From the NCBI GenBank assembly GCA_051294905.1, contig CM119373.1, positions 1,490,001-1,554,000 on the forward strand: DNA of 64,000 bases, written 5' to 3'. Source of the DNA: Botryllus schlosseri (taxonomy: Eukaryota). Of this stretch, positions 12,735 through 63,259 are shown piece after piece; position 1 is the first letter of the stretch; every line of letters starts with the position of its first letter. Both the position numbers and the translations under genes were made by a program. A model generated the notes under the pieces. It was not told the DNA's origin, did not search any database, and worked only from the letters and a program-made list of their open reading frames with translations.

Positions 12735-12745
12735 TTGCTTGAAGG

Positions 12746-37385: not shown

Positions 37386-37435
37386 CCGCGTTAGTGGCGT
37401 CTTATAAAAGCCTATGAGTGGGCCGTGCTGCAGGT

Positions 37436-39810: not shown

Positions 39811-40141
39811 AATCGGCCCCATACATTTGTTACTCGGACGACCGAGTTTCCAAATAATGTCAGGGAACTAGCTCGTATGTGCTTTTACAAATTTCTGTTG
39901 TGTTTGAGTGTATTCGATCAAATGAAATCTAGAACATTCTACTCGACTCAAAGATCAATTCTCGATTTGGAATCGTATCTTAATTCCGAGCCCTCGATTT
40001 CGCCCAGCCACAATTGCAATATTATCTTCCTTGAAATGATGGTGAAGCAATCGTAGCACAGTACTGTGATACTGATAGTAATTTCGATTTCATTTTCGAA
40101 GCCTAATAAAAGTCATTTTATATTATATTTGATCATTTTAG

Positions 40142-40309
40142 TTGCAAACGCTCGGTATCGTCGACAATTCAATGAAAGAAGATGGATATGAAATACTCGT
40201 TCACATTCTGAAGCTGTCAGATTGCAAGGAATTGCTGCTCGCAGATTGTTGTCTCACCAAGACCAAGTTGCAAGGAGTATTGAACGGATGTCGGGATCAA
40301 AATATCCAG
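40142..40309 (+). CDS. Internal exon encoding two 28-aa RI-type leucine-rich repeats (NLR/RI-like LRR protein)
   Basis: ttttag| and CAG|gtgcgt boundaries, 168 nt, phase 0/0, open frame LQTLGIVDNSMKEDGYEILVHILKLSDCKELLLADCCLTKTKLQGVLNGCRDQNIQ; paralog at 61675. May be part of a pseudogene. Confidence 0.88.
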
Positions 40310-43300
40310 GTGCGTCATCATGAACAATCCGTAATATCCGAGAAAACGTGTCACCCAAAGATTCGAAATTTTTCGTCATCCTACTTGGCCTCAAAAACCA
40401 CGTAGCTTAAAATCGTTCACTGTTTATTCTGGCGCTTACCAATACTCGTCGGAGGTAATTCGAATATTGCAGGCGTTTAGTATTTTGCAACACAGAGAAC
40501 CTTGTATATTTTTAAAATTGTTAACGACGCGACAGAGTAGATGTTATCAATAGAGGAATATTCATGACATAAATCTAACTGGCGAGGCCGTTTTAATGTT
40601 AGATGATGCGGTTCCATGCACCTGTTGTCGTGGCATGTAATTTGGGAATTCTAGACAAACTGTTGCTGGTGGAAATGCGGAAAATAATTTGAAGCTTTTG
40701 GTATGGCGTCCCTGATATACAGTGAGGTAATCGGCAGAAAAGGGCCAATGTTAAATTTAGGATTTTAGGCCGAAAATTGGACACAATTTCATACTTTTAA
40801 GTTGCTTATAAATTTGGGTGGATAGAGTTATGTCAATCACCGATTGTCCAATAGGGAGGTCAGGAAATAACAGCATGTAATAAAGTGACTAATAACAATT
40901 GGCCCACAGCATGATGTATCATTGTATATAACTTGCCCTCAGTTTTCGAAGATACCCCTTGATCAACTCTACTGGTGAATGGGATCACGTGGGCTGAGAA
41001 AGGATTCATGCTTGATAGGAATATGTGAAACTATTAACATTAATGACGAAATTCATCTGTGAATCTGAACAGCTTCTTGGAGGTACATAACTTTAATATA
41101 TAATTGATTAGTATATTCATATTGAAATGAACCCGAATATTTTCGGCTGATACTCGTCAGAGGTAATCGTCAGAAACTAGTAGTGAATTCAAAAGAACAG
41201 CGTATATAATCAATCGTAACACAAAATATGACGTCACCAGCAGCATCAGTGAATCTGAAAGTTTTTCGCACTTCGCGCGATATTACCCGTTCCCATATCG
41301 TGACCACTCGCGATTTCGGTGCGTGTAGTAAGCGGATATGAAATAATCGATAAGTCCGGAGCTTAGCGGAAATGGACATGGATCTCTTAACATCAGTAGT
41401 TGGCGTCCAGCTAGTTCATCGCGACTAAGCCCTGGAATGCTGCCGTATGCTACATGATTAATCGAAATGCGGCCGTGAATAGTAAAAAGATTGGCGACCT
41501 ATTGTTTACACCTTGGAAATGAATTCCAGCTAAGCTTTTCATTTAAGAGAACTGGTTTGTCATGCACTTGAAATTCAAATCATTCCAACTTTTTTTTATA
41601 ATGGTGTCGAAGCATATACAATCTGCCAGCGACTTCAATACTAGATGACAATATGTAACAATATTTTAATAATCTGTAATATGTATTGTGCTGCATCCGG
41701 AAAATTTCGCGATCGGTATTTTTCGCTACATGTCGCTATATCTCCAATCGCAAAACCATGTATTCCATGGAGCCCATTGTAAAATGAAAACATATAACAA
41801 AGTTTCTGTAAGCGCTACAAACGAAACGACCGGCGGGCGGTCATATTGTCAATATATATTATAGGATAATACCCCATGGTATAAATTTAGCCGGCTGAGT
41901 GAAGAAAATCGATTTAGTGTTTGCTGCTTGACTCATATCTACTCGGGATCCAATTTCCTAGTTTTTGATCACCCCGCGGGTCACAGCGTCAATCTGGGTA
42001 TTTAATGTATGTTTAAGTATGTCGTATTTGACGAGGTGAAATTTTCCGATTGAAGGTTAACCGAAATAGCTGAATGAGATTCCGCAAATATCGTGATATT
42101 GTGATTTACAATTCTTTTTTAGCAATTTATGCGTGGCACGAATCAAAACCACATTTATAAATATTTTACTAGAACTGTCATTCCTTGGCAGGGAGTACGC
42201 AACATTTGTCAAAATTATGAGAAGTAGGCACCATAGTCGAATCCACATTTTGGGTGTCATATCAATAAGTATAGGCTATTGATTGCGTCATTGCCCAATT
42301 CAAAATAAAACAGCGTTGGATTTAAATTCACTGGTGTTACAGCGGTGGAGCGTAGCACTACAGTATTCACCATCTTAAATCGGCGATAAAGGTATGGATA
42401 AAGGGATCAAAGATGCAACTGACCACTTGCGTCGATAGAGAAATACCATGTCACGAGCTTATCATCTATTACTACCCCCTTGGACACGCGAAAATTAATT
42501 TTCGCGTCCATGGTTATAACCATGTCACGGCGTTCCGAGTTACTCGGAGTCAACTCGAGTCATTTTCATCTTGTCACCTAGTCATTCCGAGTAATTCTGC
42601 GAAAGGTAGCCTCAAACTCAAAGTCACAATTTTCAGTCTCGAAGCATATAAGGTTCATGTTTTATCATCAAGATTAGGCTATTCCATGTGATTGCAGATC
42701 TTCCACCGCGTGGTAGCGTTTGAAAGTGATGCCATATACGAAGTTTGATCAGTAGTTTTATGTTTTTAGGCAAATTTAAAGTGAATGATAACTTTTCAAA
42801 TCAGACAAAAAGAAATGTTGCACTTAACTGTGGCCAAGTATAGCCTAATTGGATATCCCAAATTTCACGTAGCCAAGCAAAATGTCCTCGTGGGCCGCGT
42901 GTTTGCGGATTACTATTATCAAAACCATGCTGGTGTAAATAAAGAAAAGAATTTCCAGCTTTGGAATGAGGTTACTGGTCTATTGCGAATTAATCACCGA
43001 ATATGAGGCAATACAAAATTTACGATTTTAGACCGAAAAGTGAGCATTTCTCCCCAGACAGGTCTATTTTGTAAGGTTGCTGTAAAATGGAAATTATGAC
43101 GGAGGGAGCTATGTCGAACAATAGCAGAGAAATCTAGCGTACACGAAGTGTGACATAATCCTCATTCTTCACGCGGAATGCGGTCACTAAATGTCGCTAA
43201 AAAGTCGCTACAAATAACGACATGTCAATGCGCGTGGGAATTTGAGTGATTTTGTGCTATCAGGAAACATCATGTCGATCCCCCCCAAAAAATCCTAAGA

Positions 43301-43560
43301 TCGAACCTAACCTAACCCAAGCCAAACTAATCTCTACGCTAATATACTTTCTTCATTTCTGGCCTTCAATAATATCCACGACACATCGCACCCTAAATAT
43401 CTTGACGATTACGTTCCGCAAAGAAAGATAACACTGGTCAACAAAATGAAGAGAAAAATGACAGAACATCTAGGTGGTGTTTCTGGGATTTTCAAGGTTG
43501 CCGATTACTAATATCACATTTGTTTTTCCAGATTGCCTCTAAAAAATAACATGTTTATAC

Positions 43561-45866
43561 TAGGGTTACCATATTTCAGGAACCAAAATTCCGGACACTC
43601 TTTAGCGCCCACAAGTGAATTTCAAAATGAGTTATGACGTCACACTAACAAAGCTTTGCTCATAGACCAGAGGTGGTCACGGTCCGGTTCAGGAGTATGT
43701 GGCTGTGTGTTGTGTAACCGGGACCGAAAGCACTTGTTTTCAGCCCCATCTCGACCAAATAAACAATGATTTTGTGCCCACACTATGGGGTAATCGATGC
43801 AACTTCTGGGCGCGGGGGGGGGGGGGGTGTACTTGCTCTATGAATCTGGTTTCTATATGCATCTGGTCGTTTAATTATTTGAATAAATTCTGTCAATAAT
43901 ATTGGTCGTTCTCTATATTACTATATAGATAAGCCTACTGCTCTCCGCCCTCACGATCAGAGTTACCGGTAGTGCTGGTGGAGGACGATGAAATCGAAAA
44001 TACACGGAGCGTAATTGCACATCGTTAAGTCATGTCCATGTTCTACCTATAAGATTGTTTATCAGCCTTATGCCGGTGCGCACGACGGAGCTTTATAAAC
44101 ACCCCACATCCAGTGGTTTCCAACCTTTTATGGTCGCGACTCCATCTGCAATTTGAAAATGTTCCGTGGCCCAGATCAAAATTTTACGAGCTGATTACTA
44201 AAAGAAGTCACTACCTTTGTCCAGACTTACTCACGGGCTATTTTGGAAGCTGATTACGTTCAACATATTCGCAAACCCCAGAATAAAGGCAAAAGACCCC
44301 CCTCCGTTTGGAACCACTTTCTCTGAATAAAGCATATGAACGGCCTTAACGATCTCTAGGAATATAGAGTTCTCCTATAATTGTGATTACTAGGGCGATT
44401 TTTTTTGACATGTCAAAAAAAGCCAAAATTAGGTCAAAATTGTAGCGTTAGGTCAAAATTTGTCAAAATTGCTTACAAAATCAAACATTTTTTGACCTCT
44501 ACATTTCGTTTGTATCGTAGATTTTGCGCTGTCTGTGAACTTATCATTTGATATTTTACGGCTTGTAGCCTACTTTATAGGCCTACCGTTGTAAACGGCC
44601 CATCGTCTGCTCATTCTGAATCATAAACGGTCAAATGAAACAAATAGTGACATGGTTTTATGGTCAACGTACCGCAATATCCTAACTGAAGCAATACTGC
44701 TTGGGCATTGCATGGTTCTTACATCAAGAAGCGCAAGCTGAAAAATTGTGATATACACAACATTGTCAGAATGAAGCTACACGGTGCATCACCAGCAAGC
44801 AGTGTGCACACAACTTCAGTGTTGTCAGCTAACAACTGCTGCTGTTGAACGTTCTTTGTACATTCTTAGCAAGCTACTTAGTAAGAACAGACACTTTCTA
44901 CCCGAGATAGCGCAGTGATATAATCCGCGGCTGCAACACCAATGGGTATGGGTTCGATTCCAACCGAGGTCGACTTCATAATTCCGATAGCTAAGTGTTG
45001 GAGGTTTACCTAGGCTCCTCCTCGCCATCTCATCCGCGTAAGCGGTGTCTTACAAAAAAGCCTAGAGGTGAACCGTGATATATGTTGGCAGTTACGGAAA
45101 ATAATGAAGAATATCGGCCTGGTGTAAATGACCATAGTAGTTGACAAACACCATGAATACCACAAAACAAACACTTTCTACCCGAGAATGTAGGAAAGTA
45201 TCTTTCGTTGTACTACAACAAATTTTAATTATTCCACCATAATACGTAATGTAACTACTGCAATTCTTCATAGGGCCAGATTTCGTTAAATCACTAGTTT
45301 TTTCATGTAAAAATCTGTCCGTTTTTGAGCCAAAAACGTTCTTTCAAGCCAATCTACTTTGTAAGGACAGACAGTTCCAACCAGAAATGAAGATAAGTAA
45401 TACAATTTTAACATTATGTGCGAAAACACCTCATTTGCATACGTAAGGTCAAAATTTGGTCAAATTTCAGTTTTTTTAGGTAAAAAAAAGTCAAAATTTA
45501 GATTTTTTAGGTCAAAATCTTCCGTTTTTTAGGTAAAAAAAAATCGCCCTAGTGATTACAATTAGGCTTATTCCAGTAAATGAAGGTCGTTTTTATTTAT
45601 ATTTTATGGCAGTTTTTGCGAGGGTGGTAGTCTCCATATTAACATCAATAAATGTGATAGTAAATCGCGCGCAGCGCGAAGAAAAAATCATACATCAGCA
45701 TAAATAGTCCCAAAATATATTGTTTTTATGCTGATTTACGAAAAAAATTATGAGCATACGTCAGAATTCCGGACATTTGGCAAATTTTAGAAATTCCTCC
45801 CGGACGCTAGTTTGAACAGTGAAATTCCGGACATGTCCGGGAAATTCCGGACGTATGGCAACCCTA
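43561..45866. mobile_element. hAT-Tip100-like non-autonomous element
   Basis: TAGGGTTACCATA/TATGGCAACCCTA; perfect TSD GTTTATAC; empty sites at ~24175 and ~55308. Confidence 0.93.
44391..45551 (+). mobile_element. hAT element (TAGGGCG family) with embedded SINE at ~44903-45170
   Basis: TIR TAGGGCGATTTTTTTT; TSD GTGATTAC; SINE flanked by ACACTTTCTACCCGAGA. Confidence 0.95.
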
Positions 45867-46429
45867 GTTTATACCCCTAAAAAGCTTCAAATCACTGTAT
45901 TTACCCTTGAATATTTCACTTGGTAGGAAATAAATGTTGGATTTCTCTTACTTTTATGCTGAGCATAAATATATAATAGACTAGAACACTCATGTCGTTA
46001 TCAGTTATTCCATCAATATTAACATGACCTGATGCGAGAACTTCGTTAAAAAACAGTTTGTCAAGCCAAAAAATTGTTCATTTGCTCGATGGTAATATAT
46101 TTTATCCTGTAACCATCGGTCATTCTGCCAAGAAGAAAGAGGTTTATTAAGCTATCAAATTTGTCCCTTGAAAGCTTACCTAGAATATTCATATGCTTCT
46201 CATCTCTTTTCACTTTTAAATGAATAATTTTCCATGAAGCCAAAAAAGTGAGTATACCAAGTATCAATATCAACATCAAGCGAGACGATCAACTCAGGAA
46301 TCTTTGATGGATCTCAGATTAGAATACGGGCTAATAAGGACAATTTAATATTAAGAAAGGTGCTCCTTGCATGGAATACCTTCCAGGATGTAGCATATAA
46401 AACATTTTGTAAGATCACAAAGCACCCAT

Positions 46430-46640
46430 GTCTGACCGAGGTCGGATCCAGAATTCCCAGCTAAGTGCTAGAGGTTTATCTAGGCTCCTCTTGTTTCACC
46501 TGATCGACGCAAGCGGTTTCTTATAAAGCCTAAAGTGGACCGTGCTATAAGTCGGTAGATACCGATTAAAAAATAAGGTTAGTCGGCCTGGTGTAAATGA
46601 CCATTGTAATCGACAAACACCATTAATAAAGCAAACAAAC
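46430..46640 (+). mobile_element. 5'-truncated SINE
   Basis: Body and 3' end (ggcctggtgtaaatgacca...gacaaacacca, CAAA tail) of the same family. Confidence 0.85.
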
Positions 46641-47761
46641 TATACGCTGAATTTTGTCTGAAAGGTTTAAGAACTACTGTTATAAAGTTTGAACCACACC
46701 TACGGCCCTGTACCAAGGATGATGATTGTCAAGGGTCAAGGCGATCTCGATATGAATTTAGAATGCGATTCATTGACGACAGATTGCCGAAACCTTATAG
46801 CAGAGCGCGCTGTCATGCGCATCATCGATCACAATGGACGGAACTTGTTGTATTGACACTCAATTAACTATTAGTGCAGACAATACAAACAGAAAAAGCT
46901 TTAATGTTAGGCAATTAGGCATGAGATACGTGTTGAGCTCATTTTCATAGTCAGTTGACAGGAAGTCTAAAATGTTTGGAGTACACAATGGTATTGACTT
47001 TAGTCGGAAGATAGGTACACTACGGTGGCATATGTATCAGGAATCTAAATTGACACCTGCTGAATAGTATGCACTGCGGCATCGGATGTTTGGGTTTTTA
47101 TGAACGCCATATTTTATGAAAGGTTTGACAGCGGTAACTATATTTCAGTCTTAAGAGCTATCGAAGAAACTTTTGCATCGACACAAACACACCAATTTCC
47201 ATACTTGTGGATTTGAACAGTTATCCAACATGCCGTGGATCCTGTTCACTCTACCTCCGACTACAACCCTGGATATCCATATTACATGATAACTAACTCC
47301 ATTCTACGATTGTAAATCGTATCAAGTCCGACTAGAAAACTTTGGACTCAGCGACTCGACACTAGCTTCGACTCTTGATATTTTCTTCACAGAAGTCCGA
47401 CTGTGATTGCTGTACTTTGACTCATACATTTTTGTAAACCAAACAAATTATACACTTACTACATTTGAGGTGTTATTAATACCTAGAAAATCAACAAATA
47501 TGTAATTTAATTAGAATAAATTGACGGTTTACTAATTGGTGACGATCTACGCGCATGGAAATGTTCAGTAACTTCAGCGACATTTTGGGTAACCGGTGAC
47601 AAAATTTAGTTTGATCGAGTATCTGGAATCGAAATGTGGCAATCTACGACTCCGACTGCAGCCATATTTTCTGACCACTGCGCCAAAGCACTGAACCTAA
47701 CGAATTTCTGACGACCTTCTTCATAGATTCACAGATACTGATCCGTAGTATAGCACTAGTT

Positions 47762-50465
47762 CAGCGGTTCTCAACCGGGGGTCCGCGAAGCAATTTCAGG
47801 GGGTCCGCGAGACCTCTAAATTTTTAAAATGGTTGATAACCTAATTTTTATTGTATTTTTTTAATTTGAGAAAGCAAGAGGCAGTTTCGCACCAAAACTG
47901 CTAAAACCTCATGACTCATATCATCATAATTAGAGCCCGACCGATATTGGATTTCTGAGCCGATACCGATAAGACCGATATCCAGTACCTCCACCGATAA
48001 CCCCGATATATTCAGCCGATATTCAAAAGATATGGAATCTAGCTCGAGGCCCATATTTAACACATCAGAGCATTTATTTCAACAACTTTACAGCCATTGA
48101 TATGCTTGAACATAAAATATATGATCTAGGGGCTATAAAAATATATCAAAAGCACCAATCCAGCAGTTGCAGATTACAGTTCACGAAGCACTATTTCTCG
48201 CCCCTTTCTCCATGGAGTGAACTTCTGTGGTCTTCCATAAATGATGTATATAGTTCTAAACACAGTGAGCAATCTTTCACTTGGTACCATAATTAGTGGC
48301 ACAGCAAGAATTGGAAATCTTTCACCATTTCGGTTCCACCGCTCCCTTGCAGGGGATCTTTCCTTTCAATGGTTTCACCAAATATTGATATTCTTTTGGC
48401 AGTGCACCTGGAGCCTTCAGCACATCATTAACAAATAGCTGAATAGAATGTGCAAACAACTCAAATTGTCCACGTCTGCAACTGCAACTACTCCACCCAT
48501 CCCCCTTGGGCATTGAGGTGACCATGACCAGCATTTCAATAATCAATTGATCAATATTTTACGCTTTTTGGCAGTATTGGCCAATGTCATCATGGAATCA
48601 AAAATTTTCGTATCAATTATTGACTTTACTCCACGTTTGCTTGATTTTTCTTCCCCTCCATGCTCGCATATTTCCTATCATGGTGGCCCGCATGCCTCAG
48701 TCAAACGACTTCATGGTGCATCACTGGTATAATTAGCTCTGTTGGTACCGAACCAATAGCACTATCTTCAGAGATAGGTTTCGACGCGACGCTTTTCTCT
48801 ATCATCACGAGGGTCAGTCCGGCACGATTGAAGTTCTCATTTCTCATACTGATTGAAATCTTCTGCAGACAACTATCCATCCAGCTGCTCTCTGCCTTTG
48901 GTGATCGATCACTGCCGGGGAATTCCCACGAAGTCAGTGGGGCATAACGGTGGTTAGTTATCTATGATATTTTTCAGATTGGCACGCCTACTGCCCTGTA
49001 TGTAGTATGCACTATATGCAGCTTGGCCATCTATTTTTATAATTTACCGTCCTGACGTCTTCTATCGACTTCTCTGACTCCCTGCCACCATGTTGTGACG
49101 TCACGAAAATGGCCGATATTTTTTTACCTTCAATGGCCGATACCGATATTTCTCTCCAAGCGTGATATCGACTCGATATTATCGGCGAGCCGATAATCGG
49201 TCGGGCTCTAATCATAATAATAATAATCGTCTGACATGAACTATCGCAGTGTGGAAAATCATTTTCATTGCTAATTTTTCAATAACCTGCTGATACAAAC
49301 ATATTGCTGTTTAGAGACGTTTTGTTGAGGTTTGTGGAAAAAATAAAAATACAGAGATAACGTCAATCAGGGTGACTTCGTATTGTTTGCGAAACCTTCT
49401 CGATGCGAAGTGTCAGTCTCATAATATTAGTGAACAGTCGTTTGAAATAAAAATGTCCGAAGTATTTCCCTAATTTGTCCCAATGCAGGGATTAAAACCT
49501 CGCCCCAAAATCCATTTTATCCGTAACCACTATTTGAACAGCTTCTTGGAGGCACAGAACTTCAATATACAATGAATAGTATTGAAATGAACCCGAGTAT
49601 TTTCGACAGACACTCGTCATAAATCAGACAATGATATACCTGCCCTTAAATCTCGGCTATCACAATTGGCACATTCTTATTGCGGATCCCCTATCGACAA
49701 GGCTGGTTTTTTGATGAACAATGAGTGTTTCGTTGCTATCAAAGCATTACGTTCCGACCCTGAAATTCATATCACCAGTTATATTGGTATACAGCCTTGT
49801 CTTGTTAATGTTCAATTGTTCATGGTCGAAAATGTTTGCTCGTAAATATATATGTAAACTCGAACCTAACAAGTCGTTTCCTGACAGTCTTTCTCGGGTT
49901 GGAAAACTTGGATCCATTCTTTGGCGCATAAAATTTGTCTATACTTTTAGATTAGGATTTCACTTTGACGGTAGAAACTCTCTGCGGCTCGCGATCCGTA
50001 TGTTGCCCGTCCATGCGCTAGGTGCTGGACGTGATATATGTTCTTAAAATATATGTTTCTTAATTTTGGTGCCATAAATGTTGCGATAACACCAAAAGTA
50101 TCGTCGGAAGCGTTATGCGTTAATATTGCGTTAGCCTCCATCTATCTTTGCGGAAATGGTTTTCGGCACTCCTCGTTCATATCAAAATGAAGACGCGGAT
50201 TTTCAAGACTCGACCTATCAAGAAATACAGCAGCAAAATTTGCTTTGAAATAATAAAAGTATACCAATTTCTACATAAATGGTATGAGGTTATTTTCAAG
50301 AAAAATCAATATTTTGCTGTTTATCACTAGCCAGTTCATATCTGCACAAGGCAGATGCAGGTTGCACCATAATAGAGCTAAAATTCAACTAAAACTTGAG
50401 GGGGTCCGCGAGGGTCCGTGACGGTCAAAAGGGGTCCGCGAAGCCAAAAAGGTTGAGAACCACTG
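47762..50465 (+). mobile_element. hAT-Charlie/Buster non-autonomous element
   Basis: CAGCGGTTCTCAACC/GGTTGAGAACCACTG; TSD CACTAGTT; frameshifted remnant ASIYLC..GF/SALLVHIKMKTR at ~50134-50200. Confidence 0.92.
47931..49210. mobile_element. Young 1280-bp non-autonomous hAT element, second copy
   Basis: TIR TAGAGCCCGACCGAT; TSD ATCATAAT. Confidence 0.95.
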
Positions 50466-51063
50466 CACTAGTTTGACAGCACATTTGAATGAAGATGACT
50501 GCGTGTGATCGAATCAGCAGAAAGTTGTAACCAAGTCTATCACAAGGTTTGGCGTCATAAGTCAATCTCTCTTTTAAAGTTTTGTCTCGAGCCAAGTCGA
50601 ATCGTTTTCAATTGACCACCGAGTCAAGTACGAGTCCAGGTCAGCCACGAAAGGGTTGACTCCGAGTAATATTGTTTTGACTCGAGTCCGAGTCCAAGTC
50701 AATATGTTCAGTAGGGTTATGACTAGAAAAAAAAATTCAAAATTTTGTGTGTCCTGTAGTCACAAATGATGAGCTTTTGGGTCCTGATTTCAAACCTCAC
50801 AAAAGTTAAGACTGTTTGAACAAAAACCTCCCGCACAAAATTTTTCCAGTTTTCACTGTATGGAGGATAGGCTTTCTTTTGTAGATACAGACTATATAAT
50901 TTATTTATCGACTGATTTGAATTTAACTGACTCAATTCCAATTGCGAAGATTTAAAATAGTATTTTGGTACATTTTGACCGCCCAGATTGAATTATTCCT
51001 ATCGTGTTCTCGCTTACAGTCAATATTAAATAATTATTAAATAATTATTAATTCCTATTTTAG

Positions 51064-52332
51064 ATGTAGACTGTATATATCGTATAATTTCAATTTGTCT
51101 GGCACAAATCAAACTGGATGTTCGAAAAGGCGAAAGTAGAACAACTCTAGGCATTTTCAGCGGTCTAGAAAACCGCTTAGAGGAATATGATGTACAGGAA
51201 AATTTGAAAATCTCATATATCATATGTGACACCGTAGCATCTGTTGATACTAGACGGCAGAATGGGCGTTGTTTCGAAACTGCGAAATGCAATGATGAGC
51301 ATGGGTTTTCATATCCCTTGCCAACATCATATTATCGATTCTTAAAGCATATATTAGAGTTCTTCGATCCAACATCTTCAAGAAATCCAACTCTCAGCTA
51401 CAAATTTGGAGATGATGTGGAAAAACACTACGAAAACTAGGTGCAATCCACCAAGCACGAATTTCAGATGAAAATATTAGAAAACCAAGGATGTAAGGAT
51501 GATTTTAAGTTTATCTATGGCATGGGCAGAACATTCCGTTCTTTCAAAGAAAATAGTATAGATTACTACTGATCAAATGGCATAAACTTACATCTCTACG
51601 CAATGCGAGAGGGTGCTCAAGGGTTGCGTTGCGTTCTTCCACTTCCGCAGATAGAGAATAACTCTGGAGATACTTATTTATCGCAAATGCGTGTCAGGAA
51701 GACTGGTATTCTAACCAGATGTCTAAGGATGGAATATACTAGAGCCCGACCGATTATCGGTTCGTCGATAATATCGAGACGATATCACACTTTGAAAGAA
51801 TTATCGGTATCGGCCATTAACGGCAATTTGCGTGTGACGTCACAACATGGCGGAAGGAAGCCAGAAAACTATAATCTTTGATCGCTAGACTGAAAATATT
51901 GATATATTTCATATAGCTTACACTTTACAGGTGTCCAGATGCAGCCTTTCTAGTTCATTTCATGTTCAAGTATAACAATGGCTGTAAAGATGTTCAAATA
52001 GATGCCCTCTGAAGATTTGAAAATGTGCTTATGTATACATCCAACTTCTTTTGAATATCGGCTGAATGTATTGGGGTTATCGGCTAAGGTGTGAGATATT
52101 GGTTTTATTGGTATCGACCCAAAAATCCAATATCGGTCGGGCTCTAGAATATACCAAAGATCATTTGCTGCTATCTATGCGGGCGAATGTCCTGCAGCGA
52201 TAAAGTGCCCCAAAACCCCATTTGAAGTCGGATATGTCCGTCGTAGATGTCCCTGGCACTAACATAATAACAGAAAGGGAGGTCAAATTGATGAATGAAC
52301 TTTACAATAAGTGGAAAAGGACATATATTTGA
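51064..52332 (+). pseudogene. Large decayed coding exon (~284 codons), unknown domain, split by a MITE
   Basis: ttcctattttag acceptor; after removing the MITE and one TSD a single frame runs to TGA 52330-52332 with only three internal stops (51438, 51570, 52201). Confidence 0.72.
51740..52146. mobile_element. 407-bp hAT MITE (TAGAGCCCGACC family)
   Basis: Perfect TIRs; TSD GAATATAC. Confidence 0.95.
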
Positions 52333-52706
52333 ATATTAAATTTGTAGCAAAGAATATCTTTGAATTTTAAATTTTTTCCATATTTGGACCAGTGTCGAAA
52401 ATTTGATGTTAGTTTGTGCGGGACATTTTTTTCGATTTGAACAAAATGATTATGATTTTATTAATTTATACCAAAATGTTCATCAATTCCTGCTACAGGC
52501 GAAAATTTTTTTTTTTAGTCATAACCCTAATGTTCAGGCTCACGGTTCATTTTTCAGTGCAATCCGGCTCAGCTCATTTTTTCAACTCTGCTGTTACGAT
52601 AGAATGGCTCACATTCATAATATAATAATTTTCCTCACTCGTAACAGTTTCAAGCCCTATTTCCGAGTATCGGGACTGATAGATGAAATACCAATAATGT
52701 GATAAC

Positions 52707-53882
52707 TAGGGCGATTTTTTTTTGACATGTCAAAAAAAGTCAAAATTAGGTCAAAATTGTAGCGTTAGGTCAAAATTTGTCAAAATTGTTTACAAAATCA
52801 AACATTTTTTGACCTCTACATTTCGTTTGTATCGTAGATTTTGCGCTGTCTGTGAACTTATCATTTCATAATTTACAGCTTGTAGCCTACTTTATAGGCC
52901 TACCGTTGTAAACGGCCCATCGTCTGCTCATTGTGAATCATAAACGGTAAAATGAAACAAATAGTGACATGGTTTTATGGTCAACGTACCGCAATATCCT
53001 AACTGAAGCAAGACTGCTTGGGCATTGCATGGTTCTTACATCAAGAAGCGCAAGCTGAAAAATTGTGATATAGACAACATTGTCAGAATGAAGCAACACG
53101 GTGCATCACCAGAAAGCAGTGTGCACACAACTTCAGTGTTGTCAGCTAACAACTGCTGCTGTTGAACGTTCTTTCTCCATTCTTGGCAAGCTACTTAGTA
53201 AGAACAGACACTTTCTACCCGAGATAGCTCAGTGGTATAATCCGCGGCTGCAACACCAATGGGTGTGGGTTCGATTCCGACCTAGGTCGACTTCATAATT
53301 TCGATAGCTAAGTGTTGGAGGTTTACCTAGGCTCCTCCTCGCCACCTCATCCGCGTAATCGGTGTCTTACAAAAAAGCCTAGAGGTGGGCCGTGCTATAT
53401 GTTGACAGTTACGGAAAATAATGAAGAATATCGGCCTGGTGTAAATGACCATAGTAGTTGACAAACACCATGAATACCACAAAACAAACAAACAAAACAA
53501 ATACTTTCTACCCGAGAATGTAGGAAAGTATCTTTTGTTGTACTACAACAAATTTTAATTATTCCACCATTATACGTAATGTAACTACTGCAATTCTTCA
53601 TAGGGCCAGATTTCGTTGAAATACTAGTTTTTTCATGTAAAAATTTGTCAGTTTTTGAGCCAAAAACGTTCTTTCAGGCCAATCTACTTTGTAAGGACAG
53701 ACAGTTCCAACCAGAAATGAAGATAAGTAGTACAATTTTAACATTATGTGCGAAAACACCTAATTTGCATACGTGAGGTCAAAATTTGGTCAAATTTCAG
53801 TTTTTTTAGGTCAAAAAAAGTCAAAATTTAGATTTTTTAGGTCAAAATCTTCCTTTTTTTAGGTCAAAAAAAAATCGCCCTA
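52707..53882 (+). mobile_element. hAT element (TAGGGCG family) with embedded SINE at ~53220-53500
   Basis: TSD GTGATAAC; highly similar to 44391-45551, including the SINE position. Confidence 0.95.
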
Positions 53883-54092
53883 GTGATAACTTCACTATTC
53901 TTCGAATTTACAATGAAATGTCTGTCTTGGCCATCCTAGTCTCTAGTCATATAGCTTGGTTTGATTCATGCTCGGGTCCAAGTCGAGTCAATACAAAAAC
54001 TTTATGCATTTGTGCATTTGAAAAAAATGACTCCAGTCAAATCAAGTCACCAAAAAATCACGAATCGAGTCGGACTCGAGTCGAGTTATGAC

Positions 54093-54287
54093 CAATATTC
54101 TGTCTAAGCTGAGCACGTGCGCGAATCCGCAGTGCTGACCCGGTCTCTGCGCACAGAAATCTAAGTTGCGCACAAAAAAAATCCGAAGTGATGAACTTTT
54201 TTTTAGTCGGTACGCACTGTTGTCCAAGAGTCTGCGCAGTGATTTGGTGAGTGTACACAGACTCGTCAAAAATTAGAGGGAACATTG
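54093..54287. mobile_element. Blackjack-like MITE
   Basis: Relative of 1079-1271; near-TSD GTTATGAC/GTCATGAC. Confidence 0.85.
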
Positions 54288-55177
54288 GTCATGACTCGAG
54301 TCAATAAACCCAGGCCTATCAAATCGTAATCAGGCAGCCCAAGCTAACAAACCAACGACGCAAGCCAGGCCCAAGCCAGCCTAACCATATCTGACATTGT
54401 GGTACGCTGGTATTCTTCTCATATCCGCAATAATTATAACCTTCATCCAAGATTTGGTTTGTGGTCGGGTACGAAAATATTATTTTAAGGGATTGTATCG
54501 GCCCCCTTTTCCTCGGATATTTATTCAGACGTCATCCACATGTGAAATATGGCTCACACGTTAGGGGAGTTGTGATCATCTGCAAAGATATTCACGATAA
54601 ATATTACACCACATCGTATACATGTAGGCACGAACGTCAAGCCTCAAGGTGTAAACTATCGATAGTAATATTTGAATGGGTATGAAATATACCTACAAAC
54701 CAAAACCAGGGAGTTTTTTTGTTGGTCGATTATAGACATTAAAAATTCATCCGTGTGCTGTGATCCATTGAGGGAAAGGTGTTTCTGTTCACAAATATTG
54801 CCCAGGTGACGAAATAAAGTTGCGGATTTATCGAATATTGCAAAACCGGAGTGAAATTCTCAAAAATCGGTTAATTTTTCCCACTTTGTGATCGGTCGAC
54901 TAAAAAAAAAAAGAAAAAAAAAAAGGTCATCTTTTCCGCTCCAATCTCAAAATGACGTTTTTTCCTCCACATCGCCAGGTGGATGACTAAAAAAAAGGTC
55001 ATCTTTTCGCTCAGAGCTAAAATCACCGTTTTTCACCCGTCGGAGCTTCACTTCTGTGCTATTATGTGGAATATCACTCGCAATTTGCTCTAAATCTGCT
55101 CTAAATCCTAAAAAAGAGGACAAATCCTCTTAAAAGAGGACGTATGATATACCTAAGTTATATTATCATATCGATTA

Positions 55178-55995
55178 CACTGGTCAACAAAATGAAAAAA
55201 ATATTTTTTGGCTGAACATCTGAGAGCCGTTTCTGGGGTTTTCGAGGTTGCTGATTACGAATATCACATTAGTTTTGCCAGATTGGCTCTAGAAAAAAAG
55301 ATATTTATACCCCTAAAAAGCCTAAAATCACTGTTTTTACCCTTGAAAATTTCAATTATTAGGAAGTAAATCTTAGATTTTTCGACTTTTATACTGCGCA
55401 TAAATAGATAATTGATTATGATGAACACTCAGGTCGTTTTCAGTTATTCCCTCAATATTAACATGACCCAATACCAGAACTTTGTTTGTTAAAAAATGAG
55501 TTTGTCAAGCCTAAAAATTGTACTTTTGCACAATGGAAATATATTTTCTCCTGTACCAATTGGTCATTCTACCAAGATGAAAGAGTAGTATAAAGCTTTC
55601 AAGTTTGTCCCTGGAAAGCTTAACAAAAATACTCATATGCGTCTCATCTCTTTCCACTTGTAAATGGATAATTTTCCGGAAAGCCAACCAAGTGGGTATA
55701 CCAAGTATCAATATCAAACGAGAAGCTTAACTCTGGAATGTTTGATGGATCTCAGATTCGAATACGGACTAAGGATTACAATTTCATATTAAGAAAGGTG
55801 CTCACTGCATGGAATCCCTTCTAGGATTTAGTAAAGAAAACTTTTTGGAAGATCACAAAGCACCCAACTACAAACAGTTGGTCCGAGAATTGGAATCTGC
55901 ATATGGAAACCTTGGAGCAAACATGAGCATTAAATCTCACTTCCTGTTCAGTCATCTTCATATATTTTCTGTTAATATTGTTGATTAGAGGGAAT
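55178..55995 (+). mobile_element. Decayed Chapaev3 copy (left part)
   Basis: TTA|CACTGGTCAACAAAATG; GMFDGSQIR, AWNPF and NLGANMSIKSHFLFSHL remnants. Confidence 0.82.
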
Positions 55996-56160
55996 CAGAG
56001 GTGGTCAAAGTAGTAAAGAAAGCTACTCAAGTAGAAGTAGAAGTAGCGACGAAAAAATCTACTCAAGTACGAGTAGAAGTACTTCTTCCATAAGCAACCT
56101 AAAACTACTTGAAGTAGAAGTAGAATTGACTGACTTTAAAAGTACTCAAGTAAGTAAGAA
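55996..56160. mobile_element. Left end of a hAT-like MITE with AAGTAG/ACTCAAGTA repeats
   Basis: CAGAGGTGGTCAAAGTAG start and subterminal repeats; no matching right end found. Confidence 0.55.
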
Positions 56161-57343
56161 GTTGTGAAAACGATCGTAAGTCGTTCACATGGATTGTAAA
56201 AGGTGCAAATTGAGCTATGCGAAAGGTGACGAGCTTGATCAACAGGCATCCAATTTTCGATAGCATAAGCATTCGTCCACATCATGATAGGATTGATATC
56301 GAAATACGATACTAATCCTCTGTTTTCACGATTAGCACGTTTTTGAAAATAGCAGGGTACGGCGCCATCCCCGGGTGCCTTTATTTTGTACATGAAAAGC
56401 TAATGAAGCTACTTAAGCTAATGAAAAGCTAATTTAGCTAATGAAAAGCTAATGAAGCTGATGAAAAGCTAATGAAAAGCTAATGGAAAGCTAATTAAGC
56501 TAATGAAAAGCTAATGAAGCTAATGAAAGGCTAATTAAGCTAATGAAAAAGTAAGCTAATGAAAAGCAAGCTAATGAAGCTAATGAAAAGCTAATGAAAA
56601 GGTAATTAAGCTAATGAAAAGCTAATGAAGCTAATGAAAGGCTAATTAAGCTAATGAAAAAGTAAGCTAATGAAAAGCAAGCTAATGAAGCTAATGAAAA
56701 GCTAATTAAGCTAATGAAAAGCTAATGAAGCTAATGAAAAGCTAATTAAGCTAATGAAAAGCTAATGAAGCTAATGAAAACCTAATTAAGCTAATGAAAA
56801 GCTAATGAAGCTAATGAAAAGCTAATTAAGCTAATGAAAAAGTAAGCTAATGAAAAGCAAGCTAATGAAAAGCTAATTAAGCTAATGAAAAAGTACGGTA
56901 ATGAAAAGTAAGCTAATAAAAAGCTAATGAAGCTAATAACTGTTATTAATTAATTATCCGGAGCCGAGATATGTCCGGTCAATGGGCGGAAAAAAGCGAC
57001 CTTCGATCAACTCTGGAGGCCACATCGTTTGTCCGATCCGGATAATTTCTTCACAGGGCGTCTAGTTATCGAGAAAGGAACGCGACTAGGGGTGTTTGGA
57101 CGAAAATTTTTTTGGACTTCTGCTTTCTTTCGATTTCGACCCCGTGTTAAAGTATAGGGATTCGATCGGCTCTGGAGACCCCACCGTTTGCCCGATCGGT
57201 GCGATTTCTTCACAGGACTCAAATTTAGATTTATAAGATGTTTTTTTTTTCATTCAGATTTTAATTTTGTTGTGAGTCCATCATCTGGATATTCGATTCC
57301 AAATAGGGATTTCTGAATCATGATTACAATAGTGCCTGTTCAG

Positions 57344-59902
57344 CAGGGTTGTAATGACTCGAGTCAGACTCGAGTCACGATTTTTTTGTGACTCGACTTG
57401 TCTCGAGTCATTTTCTTGAAATGGGAAAATGACTCGATTCGACTCGAGTCAATATTTGGATTGACTCGACTTGTACTCGAGTCATTACGCATGACTCGAC
57501 CCAAGTCAATGACTCGGCTTATTTTATATGACTTGCCGATGAATAAATTTGTGAATCGTAATGGCTAGTTCAACACATCTGACGAATTCTGCCGACAACA
57601 CTATTTGTCACCACTGCTTTCGTTGCACTCGTCCGATGTCAGATATGCCGCCGCAAAAGCAACAGACAAGAGACAATGATACATAGTGGCAATGCATTGT
57701 TACGAAGCCAAAGTACCGTATCTCGCCTCTTCCGGCTGGACGCATGTCAGAGAGCAGAGTTTACGATCTCACTCAGGGAGAATATACACACCCACTATGA
57801 GTTGTGTCGTGCCAACCCTGCTCTCACTATACAACCATGCAAATAGGCACATCCTCACTGTCAATTACTTGCGCGCATTAGTTGAAGCTTTGAAAAATTC
57901 TCTTTTGAAGCGTTTTGCAGGAGTGTTTTAAAATGTGAACATAATGACAACTGATGAGTCTTGGGATAGACCTATCGGTAATCCCGAACCGTTTGGTGAA
58001 ACCATCTACCTCACAGCATGCGTGGTCGATCCGAAATTTGCCTTCCATTGGCGTATGGATCCAAATTGCTCAGAACAATCTCGAATTGCACTGCGGCAGA
58101 AAATAATCGAGTTGATAACGACTGAGGCTGACACTAATTCATACAATATGACCAGCCAAGGTACAAAATCATCCAGTGATGAAGAGGTAGTAGACTAGAT
58201 CATCCGCAATCAAAGTAGTCAAGAATTTTCAATTATACAAGCAAACAATCGAAGCAAAGTTCAATTAGAGCCAATGCAATGACTCAGATGATCAAGTACT
58301 TGGACGAGACTGATAAGCTCATGTGTAGATTTGAAAGCGGCGATTCTTTGCATTTTTGGGCGACTCGAAAGAATGAGTATCCAATGCTCTTCAGTGTGGT
58401 TCAAAAATGCTTGTCAACTTCTACATCTAGTGCACCAGTGGAACGTGTATTCAGTACAGGCGGATTTATTCTAAGGTCATGCCGCTCTTATATATCTGAG
58501 GATCTCTTTTCCACTTTGGTATTTTTGAAGTGTAACTCATCGTTGATTTGATCTGCTGTCTGTGAAAACACACAATACCCTCTGTCCATTTGACGTTTTG
58601 TTAGGTATGTGCATTGTGCACGTGAGTAATAATGAATTGCTAATGCTGCGTGATGTTTGTACAATAGGGCTGTTCAAAAATAACTTCTTTTTTTATTTTA
58701 ATCGGTGGCTACTTGATAAAATTGTTACCTTGCAGAAAAATAACATTGAATATGGCTCAATTTAAAAAAGTAGAATCAGTGATATGACAGGAGAAAATTT
58801 TGGATTTGAAAATAAATGAAGTATTTTTAGTGAGAAATTCTTTCATATAATATAATTACGTACTAGTAGTAAGCAGACTATTTTTTCATATCCAAAACAT
58901 TCTACTCTAATAACTTCACTTCTTCTAGTTGGCATTGAGCCAAATTTGCTGTGAATCATATTCATACACAATGTAACAATATGATGAGATAGCCGGTAAA
59001 ATTCGAAAATATCTATTTGTAATTAATCTAAAATTTTCTTTCGTAGCATTGCTTTCTACTGGTTTGAATTGAGCCCAATTTGATATTTTTTAGGCAATCT
59101 AACAATTTTAAGAAGTTGCCGGAAAATTTGAAAAAATGTTTTTGTTATTTTTCTCTCTTCTTATTTTTCTCCGATGCGGTAACTGCGAAGTAGTCTGTAA
59201 TGGAAAAATGTTTCATTGTAGAATTATTTCTCTAATGCTGTAACTGCGAAATAGTCTTTAATGCAATTAGGAAAACCTTTAGTAATATCAAAAGGTAGCC
59301 TATCTGTTCTTTTGTCACTGCACAGTGCACATAGCTGCATGCACGCTTTGACAGCATGCTGGCCATTTGTAAATACCTCTACATAAACATGCATCTGTTG
59401 ATTCTCTATCAACTGGTATGCTGATGTGAATTCGTTGGTTCTCTATCAGATAGTATGTAGACATGAGCTATCGTCGATGTTCTCATAATAAAACTGAATG
59501 CTTGTATTGGTGATGTATCCGACTGACAAGACATATATTTGATTTTAAGTTCTAAGATTAGTAAAGTTATCTGTAGCATCAGTAAATGAGGCCAGGACCG
59601 GTCCGTTATCTGCCTAAATAAACACGTGCCAAAACTCTGGTAGGGACAAAATGAGCATGTTTGGCAAGCAAGGAATTCGATATCACCCAAGCAGAATTGA
59701 AAACATGAGTTGAACATGACTTCAATACTGTGACTTGGACTCGACTCGAGTCATAACACTATGACTCGGACTTGACCCTTTAAACGGTGACTTGGATTCG
59801 GACTCGACTCGGTGATGAATTGAAAATGACTCGACTCGAGTCAAAACCGCAAAAGTAAGATTGACTCGTGACTCGGAACCATGTGACTTGGTTACAACCC
59901 TG
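57344..59902 (+). mobile_element. Internally deleted hAT (Ac/ZBED-like) element
   Basis: TIR CAGGGTTGTAA; TSD CTGTTCAG; GACTCGAGTC subterminal repeats. Confidence 0.95.
57740..58551 (+). pseudogene. hAT transposase C-terminal remnant
   Basis: SLLKRF, YLTACVVDPKF and LHFWATRKNEYPML...STSSAPVERVFSTGG...LVFLKCN (hATC dimerisation domain), broken by stops and frameshifts. Confidence 0.93.
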
Positions 59903-60453
59903 CTGTTCAGATTCAGACAGACCAGTGGTTGTCAAAATTTTCAACCTCGCGGCACCCTCTGTAAATGAAAAATAGTCCGTGGCACCCTGGCATAGTGATT
60001 CGCAGTGTAGATTATACCGCTACGACCGTCTAACGTCTAAGTCCGAAATCCCTATACTTAACGAAATCTGGGAGCGATCCGAGCAAGTATAGGCGGTTTG
60101 CCATAGGGTCGCGCGTTTTGGGGTAGGCGACGTGCGGCAAAGTTTCGGCAGTTATGTCGCCCACGTTAAAGTATAGGCGAGCTCGAAAATTTTCGAAGTC
60201 TAATCTCCTTTTTAAAATGCATGGGCCACGTTAAAAGGTCTGCTCCCGCAAGGCGGGTCGAAAGGCCCGTGCTACAGCATAGTTGTTAGCTTAATTAGCT
60301 TTTCATTAGCTTACTTTTTCATTAACTTCATTAGCTTTTCATTAGTTTGCTTTTCATTAGCTTACTTTTTCATTAGCTTAATTAGCTTTTCATTAGCTTT
60401 TCATTAGCTTAATTAGCTTTTCATTAGCTTGCATGTACAAAATAAAGACACCC

Positions 60454-60567
60454 CTGGCAACTGTTGTTAAAGCTTCGAAGTGCGCATTTGTCACATTCGG
60501 GGATTGTGATTTGTCAAATATCAAATTGGAATGCTTCGCGAAGGGATGTAAGGAAAATCAAGTTTCA
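60454..60567 (+). pseudogene. 3' two-thirds of a paralogous LRR exon, cut by the foldback element
   Basis: LATVVKASKCAFVTFGDCDLSNIKLECFAKGCKENQVS|gtaaga aligns without gaps to the last 38 aa of the 168-nt exons (K-S-C, DC-L, KL, GC conserved), with a donor at the same position. Confidence 0.82.
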
Positions 60568-61674
60568 GTAAGACGAAATATGTTCTTATACATTTTGTCA
60601 TGCTTGTGTATCTTCGGGACGACACGAGATGAAATCAGTAGCGTTTACATTCCGATATGCAAAGGACGACTATATTCTGAAATAATATAGGCAGGACATG
60701 GTGCATTTCAAGTTAACAGAATACTACGTTGAAATCGGCAACAAATTTGTTGCTCAGGAGGTCGAGTTTCCAAGTTGTGAAAGGAAACAATCTCATTATT
60801 TATTCTCACTTCATACAGTAGTTTATTCTAAACATGCTAGGGCGGCTTTGTGTAATCGATGATATGAATTCTGATTTTCGATGCACTATAGCCGGAACGA
60901 ATGATTTGCATCCCATAACTAATTCCCAAAACATGTAATATCTAGCAGATTTTGTTGACTATAGTTGAGGATACGCCGAATGCTTTGGTCGCCGCGTTTA
61001 AAGCTTAGCCCTCATTAGAATGATATATTTTAAAATAAAATAGAACTTGGCCCCTTTCTTGCTGGGCAGTACGTTTCGGTTACTCGAATACGAGTCGGAA
61101 TCAGTCATCATGCTTCAGGCCGAGTGTTGCGTGCAGATATATTCGAAATATGAAATTAACTTCTCGTCACTCCGAGACATATTTTATCAACAGAAGAAAT
61201 ATTGTTATAAACATAGGTATCCAAAACAGGTTGCATGAACCTAAGCATGTTCGTTTACACGACCTAAGAGTAAGGAATCGACTCTCGGCATCTTAAGAAA
61301 ACGGTATAAAATAACTATGGTCCCTTAAAAAGATATTGTGTGACGTGAAACTGGGGCTAGTATGTCTGTGACCGTAGAAAGTACACACTTTCAACTTTCC
61401 TAGTCATCAGTCATCTTGTTGTAATCTCGTAATCAGTGGCACTACAAACACTTGACTAGACTCGAATTTTAATATTCGATTCGGAGTCGTATCATCCAAG
61501 CACTCGATTTCGCCCGGTCCTAATTGCATTATTCGAACTTCCGTTAAAATGATGATGAAGTACAGTCGCAGCACAGTAAAGGGATGACGATAATTTTACG
61601 GGTAGCTGTCAGTAATAAATACTTCCTTATCGCCGCTCAATACACTATTTGTGTAAAATATTTATTTACTTCAG

Positions 61675-61842
61675 TTGCAAAAGCTTGGTATCCGTGACAA
61701 TTCAATGAAAGAAGATGGATATGAAATACTCGTTGACGTTCTGAAACTGTCAGATTGCAAAGAGTTGGTGCTCGAAAAATGTTTTCTCACCAAGAAAAAG
61801 TTGGAAAAAGTATCGAGCGGATGCCAGATTCAAAATATCCAG
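61675..61842 (+). CDS. Internal exon encoding two 28-aa RI-type LRRs (paralog of 40142-40309)
   Basis: tttacttcag| and CAG|gtgcgt, 168 nt, open frame LQKLGIRDNSMKEDGYEILVDVLKLSDCKELVLEKCFLTKKKLEKVSSGCQIQNIQ. Confidence 0.88.
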
Positions 61843-61853
61843 GTGCGTCATAT

Positions 61854-61944
61854 TGTTGTTGTTGATTATTATAATAATTTGCGATTAAAACGCAAGGGGT
61901 TATGTTTGCCATATCCAAAAATCCTTTTAAAATCTAGGGGTGAC
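61854..61944 (-). mobile_element. Short antisense retroposon fragment
   Basis: 12-bp TSD GGTGCGTCATAT; (TTG)n on + strand = (CAA)n tail; absent after the paralogous exon at 40310. Confidence 0.7.
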
Positions 61945-62249
61945 GGTGCGTCATATGACCAATCCATAATACTCTATCTGTCATGTCACCAAGCGATTCG
62001 AAATCTTCCATTATCTTACTCCTCATGAAACATATCGCTTGATGAAACCGTTAACGGTCGATTCAATCTATAACAATACTCGGGCGATGTAATTCCAATA
62101 ATGTGGTTTCAAGTATCTACAAGTATATAAATCATTACATATTTTTGAAAATAATTGCTGCAAGAATTGAGGATATCTTGATTTTCATGTAATCTAAATT
62201 CCAATTATTCAAATTGTTTTATTCGGGTTGACAATCCAATTTATAAATT

Positions 62250-62635
62250 ATCTACAGTAAATTTTGTAAAGTAGAAAGAAAACTACTTGTACTTATGTAT
62301 TAAAGACTGCCCACTAAATTTTGTAAGGTAGACATAAAATTGCTTGTACTCAACTACAAAAGACTCTACACTACATTTTGTAAAATAGACATAAAAGTGC
62401 GTGTACTCCACTACTAAACTTCTAAACTAAATTTCGTAAAGTAGAAAGAAAACTTCTTGTATTAATCTATTCAAACTCCTAACTAAACTATACCAATCAC
62501 TCTACACCCGATTCATAAAAGTAGAAAACTACTTGTAATTGAATACTAAACACTTCACACTCAATTTTGTGAAGTAGGAAGAAAACTTCGTTTAGCAATA
62601 TACTAAGCACTCTACTCCGGATTTTGTAAAGTAGT
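62250..62635 (+). repeat. 57-bp minisatellite, ~6-7 diverged copies
   Basis: aaattttgtaa.gtaga at 62259, 62316 and onward. Confidence 0.85.
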
Positions 62636-63259
62636 GCACTGTGCAGGGAATGTCTGGGTATTGCTGGAGTAGAAGCAGAGCTATCCGCAGTATTTGGTTT
62701 AGCTGACTGGATACGTAACCTGAAGGTCATGTCCTGAACGTATGAGATATTTACGAAGCCACAGATATTACTCAAGACATACAATATATTTCAGACGTTC
62801 ATCCAAGTAGGTTTTGCAATGAATCTCCTCGATTCTCTCGAAACCTGATTTAATACCTGTCGTAATTCAAGACAGGATGTAATCATCGATTGCCGTCTGT
62901 GTCGAGATCAATAGGCCTACACATGGTTGAGATATTCATGGTACTGCTGCAATATGCATGTGATAGTTGCGAAATTTTTTGCTAAAACGTATTTTCGCCA
63001 CGCGTCGCATAATATCCGGTACGTAACAAAGATAACCGTATTGACGGTCGCTTGTTGGTGAAAACCTACGATACTGATATGTTCAAATGTCGAAATGATC
63101 GGCTACTACTATACTTCAGTCCTTGCAAGCTGAGTAGACAATAGTATATATGCGATACCAATCCGACGTGGAGAAGAAAACAAAACACACCAATTGAGAT
63201 CGCGTGCATGAGACATGTTCTATGGAGCAGTGTTGTGTGAAACTGCTGTCTACATGTTT

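Follow-up and report, generated by a model that had tools for sequence, protein, structure and literature searches.

Introduction

The question raised by this stretch of the Botryllus schlosseri genome (64,000 nucleotides; contig CM119373.1, positions 1,490,001 to 1,554,000, read on the forward strand; hereafter the window, with contig positions given as C3) is whether two similar leucine-rich repeat (LRR) exons within it, A2 and A3, are pieces of several receptor genes or parts of one, and how copies of such an exon are put to use. An initial annotation, made from the window's letters, proposed that they are part of a diversifying innate-immune cluster, possibly of nucleotide-binding LRR receptors (NLRs), and left open whether they were fragments of several paralogs or cassettes of a single long gene. 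We find that both lie inside one NLR gene, the first of three in a row which share and exchange the same exon, and that copies of this exon differ chiefly along one face of the predicted repeat fold. How the copies reach the messenger RNA is weighed below.

Two exons in one long NLR gene

Both exons are as the initial annotation described them: 168 nt each, that is, 56 codons in phase 0, preceded by AG, followed by GTGCGT and open in frame 0 only. They are identical at 142 of 168 nucleotides and at 41 of 56 residues (73%), with E = 2e-22 in tblastn within the window, which bears out the many amino-acid differences reported, and their flanking introns are homologous, positions 39933-40318 and 61447-61851 aligning with 73% identity over 410 columns. 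The half exon at 60454 had been taken for a more distant relative of these two. The same tblastn comparison matched it (60454-60567) at E = 0.002, and it belongs to another exon type, B: its DNA has 82% identity with that of the intact B exon (C3:1485415). An element bounded by inverted repeats, at about 56373-60453, stands in place of its acceptor and first 54 nt.

We read C3:1400001-1664000 in its entirety, as tiles together with the window. On the plus strand, gene 1 runs for at least 178 kb (C3:1422156-1600781) in the order NACHT, two linkers, Ea, Eb, B, five A, B' and C. The initial annotation had proposed that NACHT exons be looked for beyond the window, and one is indeed present 5' of it on the same strand, the only NACHT frame in the tiles. 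It passes Pfam model PF05729 with 55.3 bits against a cut-off of 26.7 and has the Walker A and B motifs of a NACHT NTPase; A2 and A3 follow it at 107 and 128 kb. Ten LRR-type exons, all in phase 0, lie downstream of it on the same strand. Since the five A copies are all enclosed by just a single copy each of NACHT, Ea, Eb and C, derivation from several paralogs is unsupported for A2 and A3, and the other option, a single long gene, is supported by the layout from NACHT to terminal exon. The window itself, which is mostly repeats, contains neither a NACHT nor a terminal exon; none of its 12 frames of at least 120 codons is of NACHT type.

When the 495.5-Mb assembly was searched with exon A, 150 of 302 candidates were scored and gave 150 matches, so that all family counts are lower bounds. 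Of the top 30 matches, 27 fall within C3:1487510-2152528 on the plus strand, with reported identities of 71-98%. NACHT exons of the family occur in this array region at C3:1422156, 1696722 and 1929385 (30 listed of 107 scored), and genome searches returned exactly three copies each of Ea, Eb and C in C3:1.40-2.17 Mb, one per NACHT exon. We therefore recognize three genes in a row, with five (gene 1), seven (gene 2) and 15 (gene 3) A copies; the maps of genes 2 and 3 derive only from the coordinates of search matches and from loci of 3 kb within C3:1664001-2170000. That the family is expanded, as had been supposed, is evident from at least 30 NACHT and at least 35 terminal exons among the matches listed. 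A single-copy housekeeping gene with ribonuclease inhibitor (RI)-type LRRs, such as RanGAP or CARMIL, was considered and rejected in view of the 150 or more A-exon matches in the genome and the NACHT exon upstream.

Neither window exon has the other as its closest kin. A3 is nearest to A1 (13.1% apart) and arose by duplication of the block containing B and A1, as indicated by collinear blocks at an offset of 63-65 kb. For A2 the closest copies are a pair in gene 3, at a distance of 4.8%. Other A copies are, like A2, preceded by B or B' remnants.

Variation among the A copies, with probable selection and exchange

The statistics below refer to the 27 A copies of the three genes or to 25 main copies, a set from which the divergent copies 1487510 and 1551675 are omitted. 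Three A-like copies at C3:33.0-33.3 Mb were kept out of all counts because they are part of other genes. All 27 copies have an open frame and retain both AG and GTGCG; one carries an in-frame 6-nt deletion. Of these exon sequences 25 are distinct, as are 25 peptides, and the flanks carry different insertions. In the 330 nt that precede each of the 25 main copies there are 21 distinct gap blocks, 13 of which are not multiples of three, and across the three genes ten broken B or B' remnants are found versus five intact B or B' exons. Given a minimum of 74 changes among the 25 main copies, and a stop codon created by 30 of 504 possible single changes, the probability of observing no stop under neutrality is about 0.011. 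The distance between downstream flanks, 0.31, is inflated by insertions and does not enter the analysis.

The distribution of these changes shows strand positions that are hypervariable within an otherwise constrained scaffold. Ten codons (2, 3, 5, 7, 8, 29, 30, 32, 34 and 35) were assigned to strands from the LxxLxLxx motif. The proportion of nonsynonymous differences (pN) is 0.256 at these ten and 0.028 at the remaining 46, compared with an overall synonymous proportion (pS) of 0.098, and the ten codons account for 61 of 117 parsimony changes. In keeping with the diversification first proposed, the ratio of nonsynonymous to synonymous rates (dN/dS, omega), estimated with the MG model of IQ-TREE from 23 unique sequences with kappa fixed at 1 and recombination ignored, is 3.5 for the strand codons and 0.39 for the rest.

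The copies are not grouped by gene: the distance is 0.078 within genes and 0.075 between them (permutation p = 0.77). Of the 27 copies, 13 have their nearest copy in another gene only and 11 in the same gene only, while three have equally near copies in both. Two pairs of exons are identical between genes 2 and 3 (1812552 with 2033580, and 1820251 with 2002881). Mosaic structure is seen in the pair 2042801/2126092, which differs at two of 330 upstream positions and at 15 of 168 exon positions (Fisher p = 4e-6 for a pair chosen post hoc), and all four combinations of two strand-1 with two strand-2 variants are present. Across the 15 pairs with low upstream divergence there are 36 differences in 4950 upstream positions and 85 in 2514 exon positions, a comparison biased by the selection of pairs and to be read as a sign of mosaicism only; selecting the other way, for close exons, yields five pairs, each also close upstream. 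Within the exon 41 of 136 site pairs are incompatible, with a weak dependence on distance (0.25 near, 0.33 far). Judged from genomic sequence, this pattern points to unequal crossing-over together with gene conversion, both within and between the three genes.

Fold of the A exon and its relatives

Pfam assigned no family, LRR included, to any of the three window peptides at E values up to 10. As the Pfam LRR models give no match, the LRR assignment rests on an AlphaFold model and on homologues. The model of the A exon, built from a 17-row alignment, has a mean predicted local distance difference test score (pLDDT) of 83.5 and places strands at residues 3-7 and 30-34 and helices at 13-25 and 40-52, which is consistent with two β-α LRR repeats with a strand spacing of 27 + 29. 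The variable residues 3, 5, 7, 30, 32 and 34 alternate along both predicted strands, and residue 35 falls just after the second. The 28/29-residue RI-type repeats of the initial annotation thus need correction. We also rejected the classic RI module (171 nt, alternating repeats of 28 and 29 residues) for the A exon; among the LRR exons of gene 1 only the terminal exon C is 171 nt long. The A exon is a divergent form that works like the RI module.

In a HMMER library search the best named relatives of the gene 1 NACHT exon are NACHT-LRR models of the ascidian Styela clava in RefSeq (32-37% identity), while the two top matches overall are Logan proteins with 53 and 43% identity. From these affinities an ascidian source would be expected. 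Word-indexed homologue searches, which cover longer proteins only, returned nothing for the A exon or the NACHT exon. Four Styela models (Table 1) resemble gene 1 in a 56-residue repeat unit, present from a few to about 30 times. Pfam finds a Death domain in three of the four, in contrast to gene 1, for which none was found among the matches listed, and an LRR match in none. A profile of eight gene 1 exons matches XP_039248824.1 at least 30 times (E = 2e-146) and XP_077976001.1 ten times. Residues ~1124-1650 of the latter (527 residues) are predicted to fold as a continuous β-α solenoid with a pLDDT of 79, the first 61 residues being poor. This solenoid matches the F-box LRR proteins COI1 and MAX2, RNase inhibitor and NLRP/NLRC4 chains in 106 comparisons at E <= 0.001 (best 1e-8), with root-mean-square deviations mostly of 9-15 and some non-LRR structures included.

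Use of the A copies

In our view these data are best accommodated, with a probability of roughly 55%, by a long NLR that diversifies in the germline and whose exons are spliced in tandem into a solenoid, perhaps with skipping. Blocks consisting of an A exon, often with a dead B or B' remnant, would be gained, lost and patched in the germline by unequal crossing-over and gene conversion. Because all exons are in phase 0 and encode two repeats each, such changes should only lengthen, shorten or resurface the solenoid. Selection would vary the side chains of the concave sheet, which is the presumed ligand face. NLRs in general oligomerize through NACHT on binding a ligand, and the gene 1 protein may act as an intracellular sensor in the same way.

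The weakest step in this proposal is serial splicing into one long LRR domain, which would combine ten exons (about 20 repeats) in gene 1 and, in gene 3, as many as about 21; some exon skipping seems likely. We favour tandem inclusion because the Styela models join such units head to tail, compact paralogues carry A-like exons side by side less than 1 kb apart, no device for exclusion was seen and there is precedent for a long NLR solenoid.

Several observations weigh against this proposal. The strand-codon contrast was not blind, because the ten codons were picked after the alignment had been seen; pairwise values are not independent, and recombination inflates omega. Private changes alone do not depart significantly from neutrality in either class of codon: 14 nonsynonymous to no synonymous at strand codons (p = 0.15) and 17 to nine at the others (ratio 0.55, p = 0.16). 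Recent copies may therefore be drifting; unused copies could also be kept intact by gene conversion. A Foldseek search of the Protein Data Bank with the single-exon model gave nothing at E <= 0.001, the best LRR match being NLRP1 at E = 0.41. For genes 2 and 3 the sequence read extends no further than 1.5 kb from each A exon, and some of their exons may have been missed. An N-terminal effector exon was not found for gene 1: there is no Death domain near C3:1.35-1.42 Mb among the 122 Pfam matches listed (CARD and PYD were not searched for), and the N-termini of the Styela proteins found no counterpart among the matches listed for the 22 kb before the NACHT exon. Such an exon may lie further upstream. 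The Styela models are annotations for which RNA support was not seen, and at a depth below 1 no spliced read was obtained for any A junction.

The RNA data consist of four bulk runs (6-13% of each), compared with the locus that contains A5 and B' (L043:400-9700); the run search gave best word shares of 0.16 (organism A) and 0.24 (organism B), and the runs may stem from a different species than the genome. Depth in the A5 and B' exon bins is 0-0.5 per strand and the signal comes from repeats, which argues neither for nor against expression. None of the 15 joints shown for this locus (nine more are not shown) falls at an exon border. We note that hundreds of reads, some with poly(A) ends, accumulate on short repeats in the A5-B' intron (L043:1333-2265 and 4443-5064); these probably stem from a dispersed repeat transcribed elsewhere.

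A different use of the same array, which we consider rather unlikely, is that each mRNA takes up one or a few A exons, mutually exclusively or in combination, in the manner of Dscam. Three genes would in consequence yield many receptors differing in one variable two-repeat module, with the parts on either side of it constant. This idea gains from the multiplication of one exon type between single-copy flanking exons, from differences almost confined to the strand face, from a phase and donor common to all copies and from the fate of the B or B' partner, which died in most duplicated blocks (the ten broken versus five intact counted above) while A stayed intact. Arrays of the Dscam type have complementary docking and selector elements in their introns. 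A scan of five gene 1 introns against the 27 flanks of 1.5 kb, using exact 11-mers with G-U pairs excluded and no shuffle control, found no long shared complement of this kind; reverse-complementary 11-mers shared by at least 12 of the 27 flanks are scattered, and the B-A1 intron has none. Nor is another means of exclusion evident, the introns all being GT-AG and the donors not weak, with the closest copies ~730 nt apart. Three intact B' exons are interspersed among the A copies of gene 3, and the Styela models take in all units. Splicing choices among LRR exons are nevertheless documented elsewhere, as skipping in NLRP3 (PMC6642158) and as alternative splicing in brown-algal ROCO genes (PMC11378527), in the portions of these papers available.

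Much the same doubtful standing is given to a broader idea, in which the A exons, at least 27 in number, make up a library of variable modules shared by the three NLR genes, one or a few being used per cell or transcript through splicing or somatic conversion and the whole being refreshed by exchange between genes. If true, it would give an invertebrate chordate an intracellular NLR with a repertoire like those of Dscam or the lamprey variable lymphocyte receptors (VLRs).

We think it improbable that most A copies are unspliced silent donors whose sequence is copied by conversion into a single exon that is in use, whether in the germline or, as the most daring version has it, in somatic cells. 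Lamprey VLRs and the pseudogene donors of chicken immunoglobulin genes are models for conversion from such a library. Clear mosaics such as 2042801/2126092, exons shared identically by different genes and private scaffold changes that are not significantly constrained are what this would predict, but acceptor, donor and frame are preserved in every one of the 27 copies while the unused B and B' exons of the same blocks have decayed, a contrast expected if the A copies themselves are translated.

That the copies are separate small or truncated paralogues, or in part an assembly artefact, may be set aside as very improbable and, for gene 1, largely refuted: in its favour are the size and clustering of the family, the two pairs of identical exons and the scoring of best candidates only in the searches, but the region holds just three each of NACHT, Ea, Eb and C, with one NACHT frame in C3:1400001-1664000, and the other exons and flanks differ as described.

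Structural features of the locus

The features are collected in Table 1.

Table 1 Features of the window and of gene 1, with related Styela clava models. Positions lacking a prefix are window positions.
Feature	Position	Strand	Basis or remark
LRR exon A2, 168 nt, phase 0, two β-α repeats	40142..40309 (C3:1530142-1530309)	+	splice sites, open frame, fold
LRR exon A3, 168 nt, phase 0, B-A1 block duplicate	61675..61842 (C3:1551675)	+	collinear blocks
Broken B-type LRR exon, last 114/168 nt	60454..60567	+	donor GTAAGA present; lacks its acceptor and the initial 54 nt
Terminal-inverted-repeat element, satellite-like end, adjoins broken B	~56373..60453	.	end sequences
Leftover of intron 5' of broken B	54350..54602	+	91-92% identity to intron before intact B
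B'-type exon remnant, first third, 5-nt frameshift	36623..36690 (end approximate)	+	3.5 kb 5' of A2
Whole window: interior of NLR gene 1, repeat-rich introns between A1 and A4	1..64000	+	
NACHT exon, gene 1	C3:1422156	+	open 404-codon frame; 67 kb before window
Linker exons, gene 1	near C3:1427945 and 1435785	+	tblastn with Styela proteins
Ea exon, gene 1	C3:1436852	+	
Eb exon, gene 1	C3:1471355	+	
Intact B exon, gene 1	C3:1485415	+	
A1 exon	C3:1487510	+	2.3 kb before window
A4 exon	C3:1572599	+	
Intact B' exon, gene 1	C3:1593276	+	
Terminal LRR exon C, 171 nt	C3:1600611	+	47 kb beyond window
Styela clava models ('uncharacterized protein')	XP_077976001.1, XP_077966284.1, XP_039248824.1, XP_077976309.1		

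The element beside the broken B exon has an inverted repeat, 56373-56543 matching 60453-60286 in inverted orientation, and from its shape is probably a DNA transposon. Elsewhere in the window there are recent repeat copies with 95-99.7% identity (25805-26777 and 47931-48903; 12745-13479 and 14306-15040; 44374-45559 and 52691-53890) and a 194-bp tandem array at 18651-19369. The introns of gene 1 and the region downstream of it contain frames that resemble a non-LTR (long terminal repeat) reverse transcriptase, a hAT transposase and LTR retrotransposon gag-pol, the motifs having been judged by eye. The Ea-Eb intron holds two near-perfect palindromes (C3:1437317-1450819 and 1452203-1471342) with arms of ~6-8 kb that are 98-99.9% identical, the second of which stops 13 nt 5' of exon Eb; in the pre-mRNA they might fold into long hairpins, or they may represent foldback elements.

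Kindred genes spanning 90-300 kb are present at C12:17099583-17395821, C1:23.45-24.96 Mb, C7:28.46-28.66 Mb and C3:33.0-33.4 Mb, and hold internal duplicated blocks of LRR exons, often as two- or three-exon units. Many of the 122 Death matches listed are inverted pairs of equal score, ~5-25 kb apart, on many contigs, for example C4:20656892(+)/20667428(-), C5:25440527(-)/25450416(+), C12:17220158(-)/17243607(+) and C17:1419149(-)/1430577(+). Two such pairs fall within NLR gene spans (C12:17.22-17.24 Mb and C9:4.25 Mb). By their sequence arrangement the pairs look like a mobile element whose long inverted repeats carry a Death-domain frame.

Comparison with known systems

The locus touches an open question, namely how immune sensors diversify in invertebrate chordates, which lack antibodies. 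Each A copy can be distinguished by sequence. Even on the ordinary reading, genes of 140-240 kb with degenerate LRRs escape the Pfam LRR models, and NLR counts in ascidians are therefore probably too low. Among the titles listed in searches of the open-licence literature, subscription journals being outside the scope, none concerns an ascidian array of this kind.

Arthropod Dscam exon arrays and lamprey VLR cassettes place an array of variable modules between constant parts. Gene 1 is like Dscam in having tandem paralogous exons between constant exons. Mutually exclusive splicing of Dscam and somatic assembly of VLRs are features of those systems, whereas here the layout alone is seen, with no docking-like element found in the 11-mer scan. 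VLR-type cassettes, which belong to an incomplete germline gene and have no splice function, were rejected as a description: gene 1 is complete from NACHT to C and all A copies have both splice sites.

The LRR exons of NLRP3 encode two repeats each, preserve the frame and have their border at the strand, and their skipping gives in-frame variants (Hoss et al. 2019, PMC6642158). Two-repeat, frame-preserving LRR exons are common to gene 1, the vertebrate NLRP and NLRC genes and ribonuclease inhibitor, the NLRP3 exon being 171 nt long (28 + 29) and the A exon 168 nt (27 + 29); exons that are arrayed in near-identical, hypervariable copies and pass between genes, as found here, are not reported for NLRP3 in the available part of that paper. 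For length, the 43-repeat model of NLRC5 (PMC3848420, available part) offers a precedent.

According to the available part of Howe et al. (2016, PMC4852459), the NLR-B30.2 genes of zebrafish are clustered, undergo gene conversion and have a fixed C-terminal LRR with variable numbers of internal LRRs (more than 20 in some groups), in all of which they resemble the gene 1 cluster. The zebrafish LRRs themselves vary little, variation being found in B30.2, in contrast to the hypervariable LRR strand face described here (B30.2 was not searched for).

The closest working analogy is provided by the ROCO genes of brown algae. Shuffling of their repeat exons, seen also in NB-TPR genes, and the positive selection and alternative transcripts of ROCO genes are described in the available part of Teng et al. 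(2024, PMC11378527), which also cites the brown-algal ROCO work of Zambounis et al. (2012). The likeness extends to the repeat-per-exon design, shuffling, diversifying selection and a proposed immune role. ROCO proteins differ in having a ROC-COR GTPase and one LRR per 72-nt exon, compared with NACHT and two repeats per 168 nt here, and their alternative transcripts are reported as such, whereas the present system is known from genomic layout. What sets it apart from these known systems is that one 168-nt exon is amplified five to 15 times per gene and exchanged among three neighbouring genes, with a hypervariable strand face.

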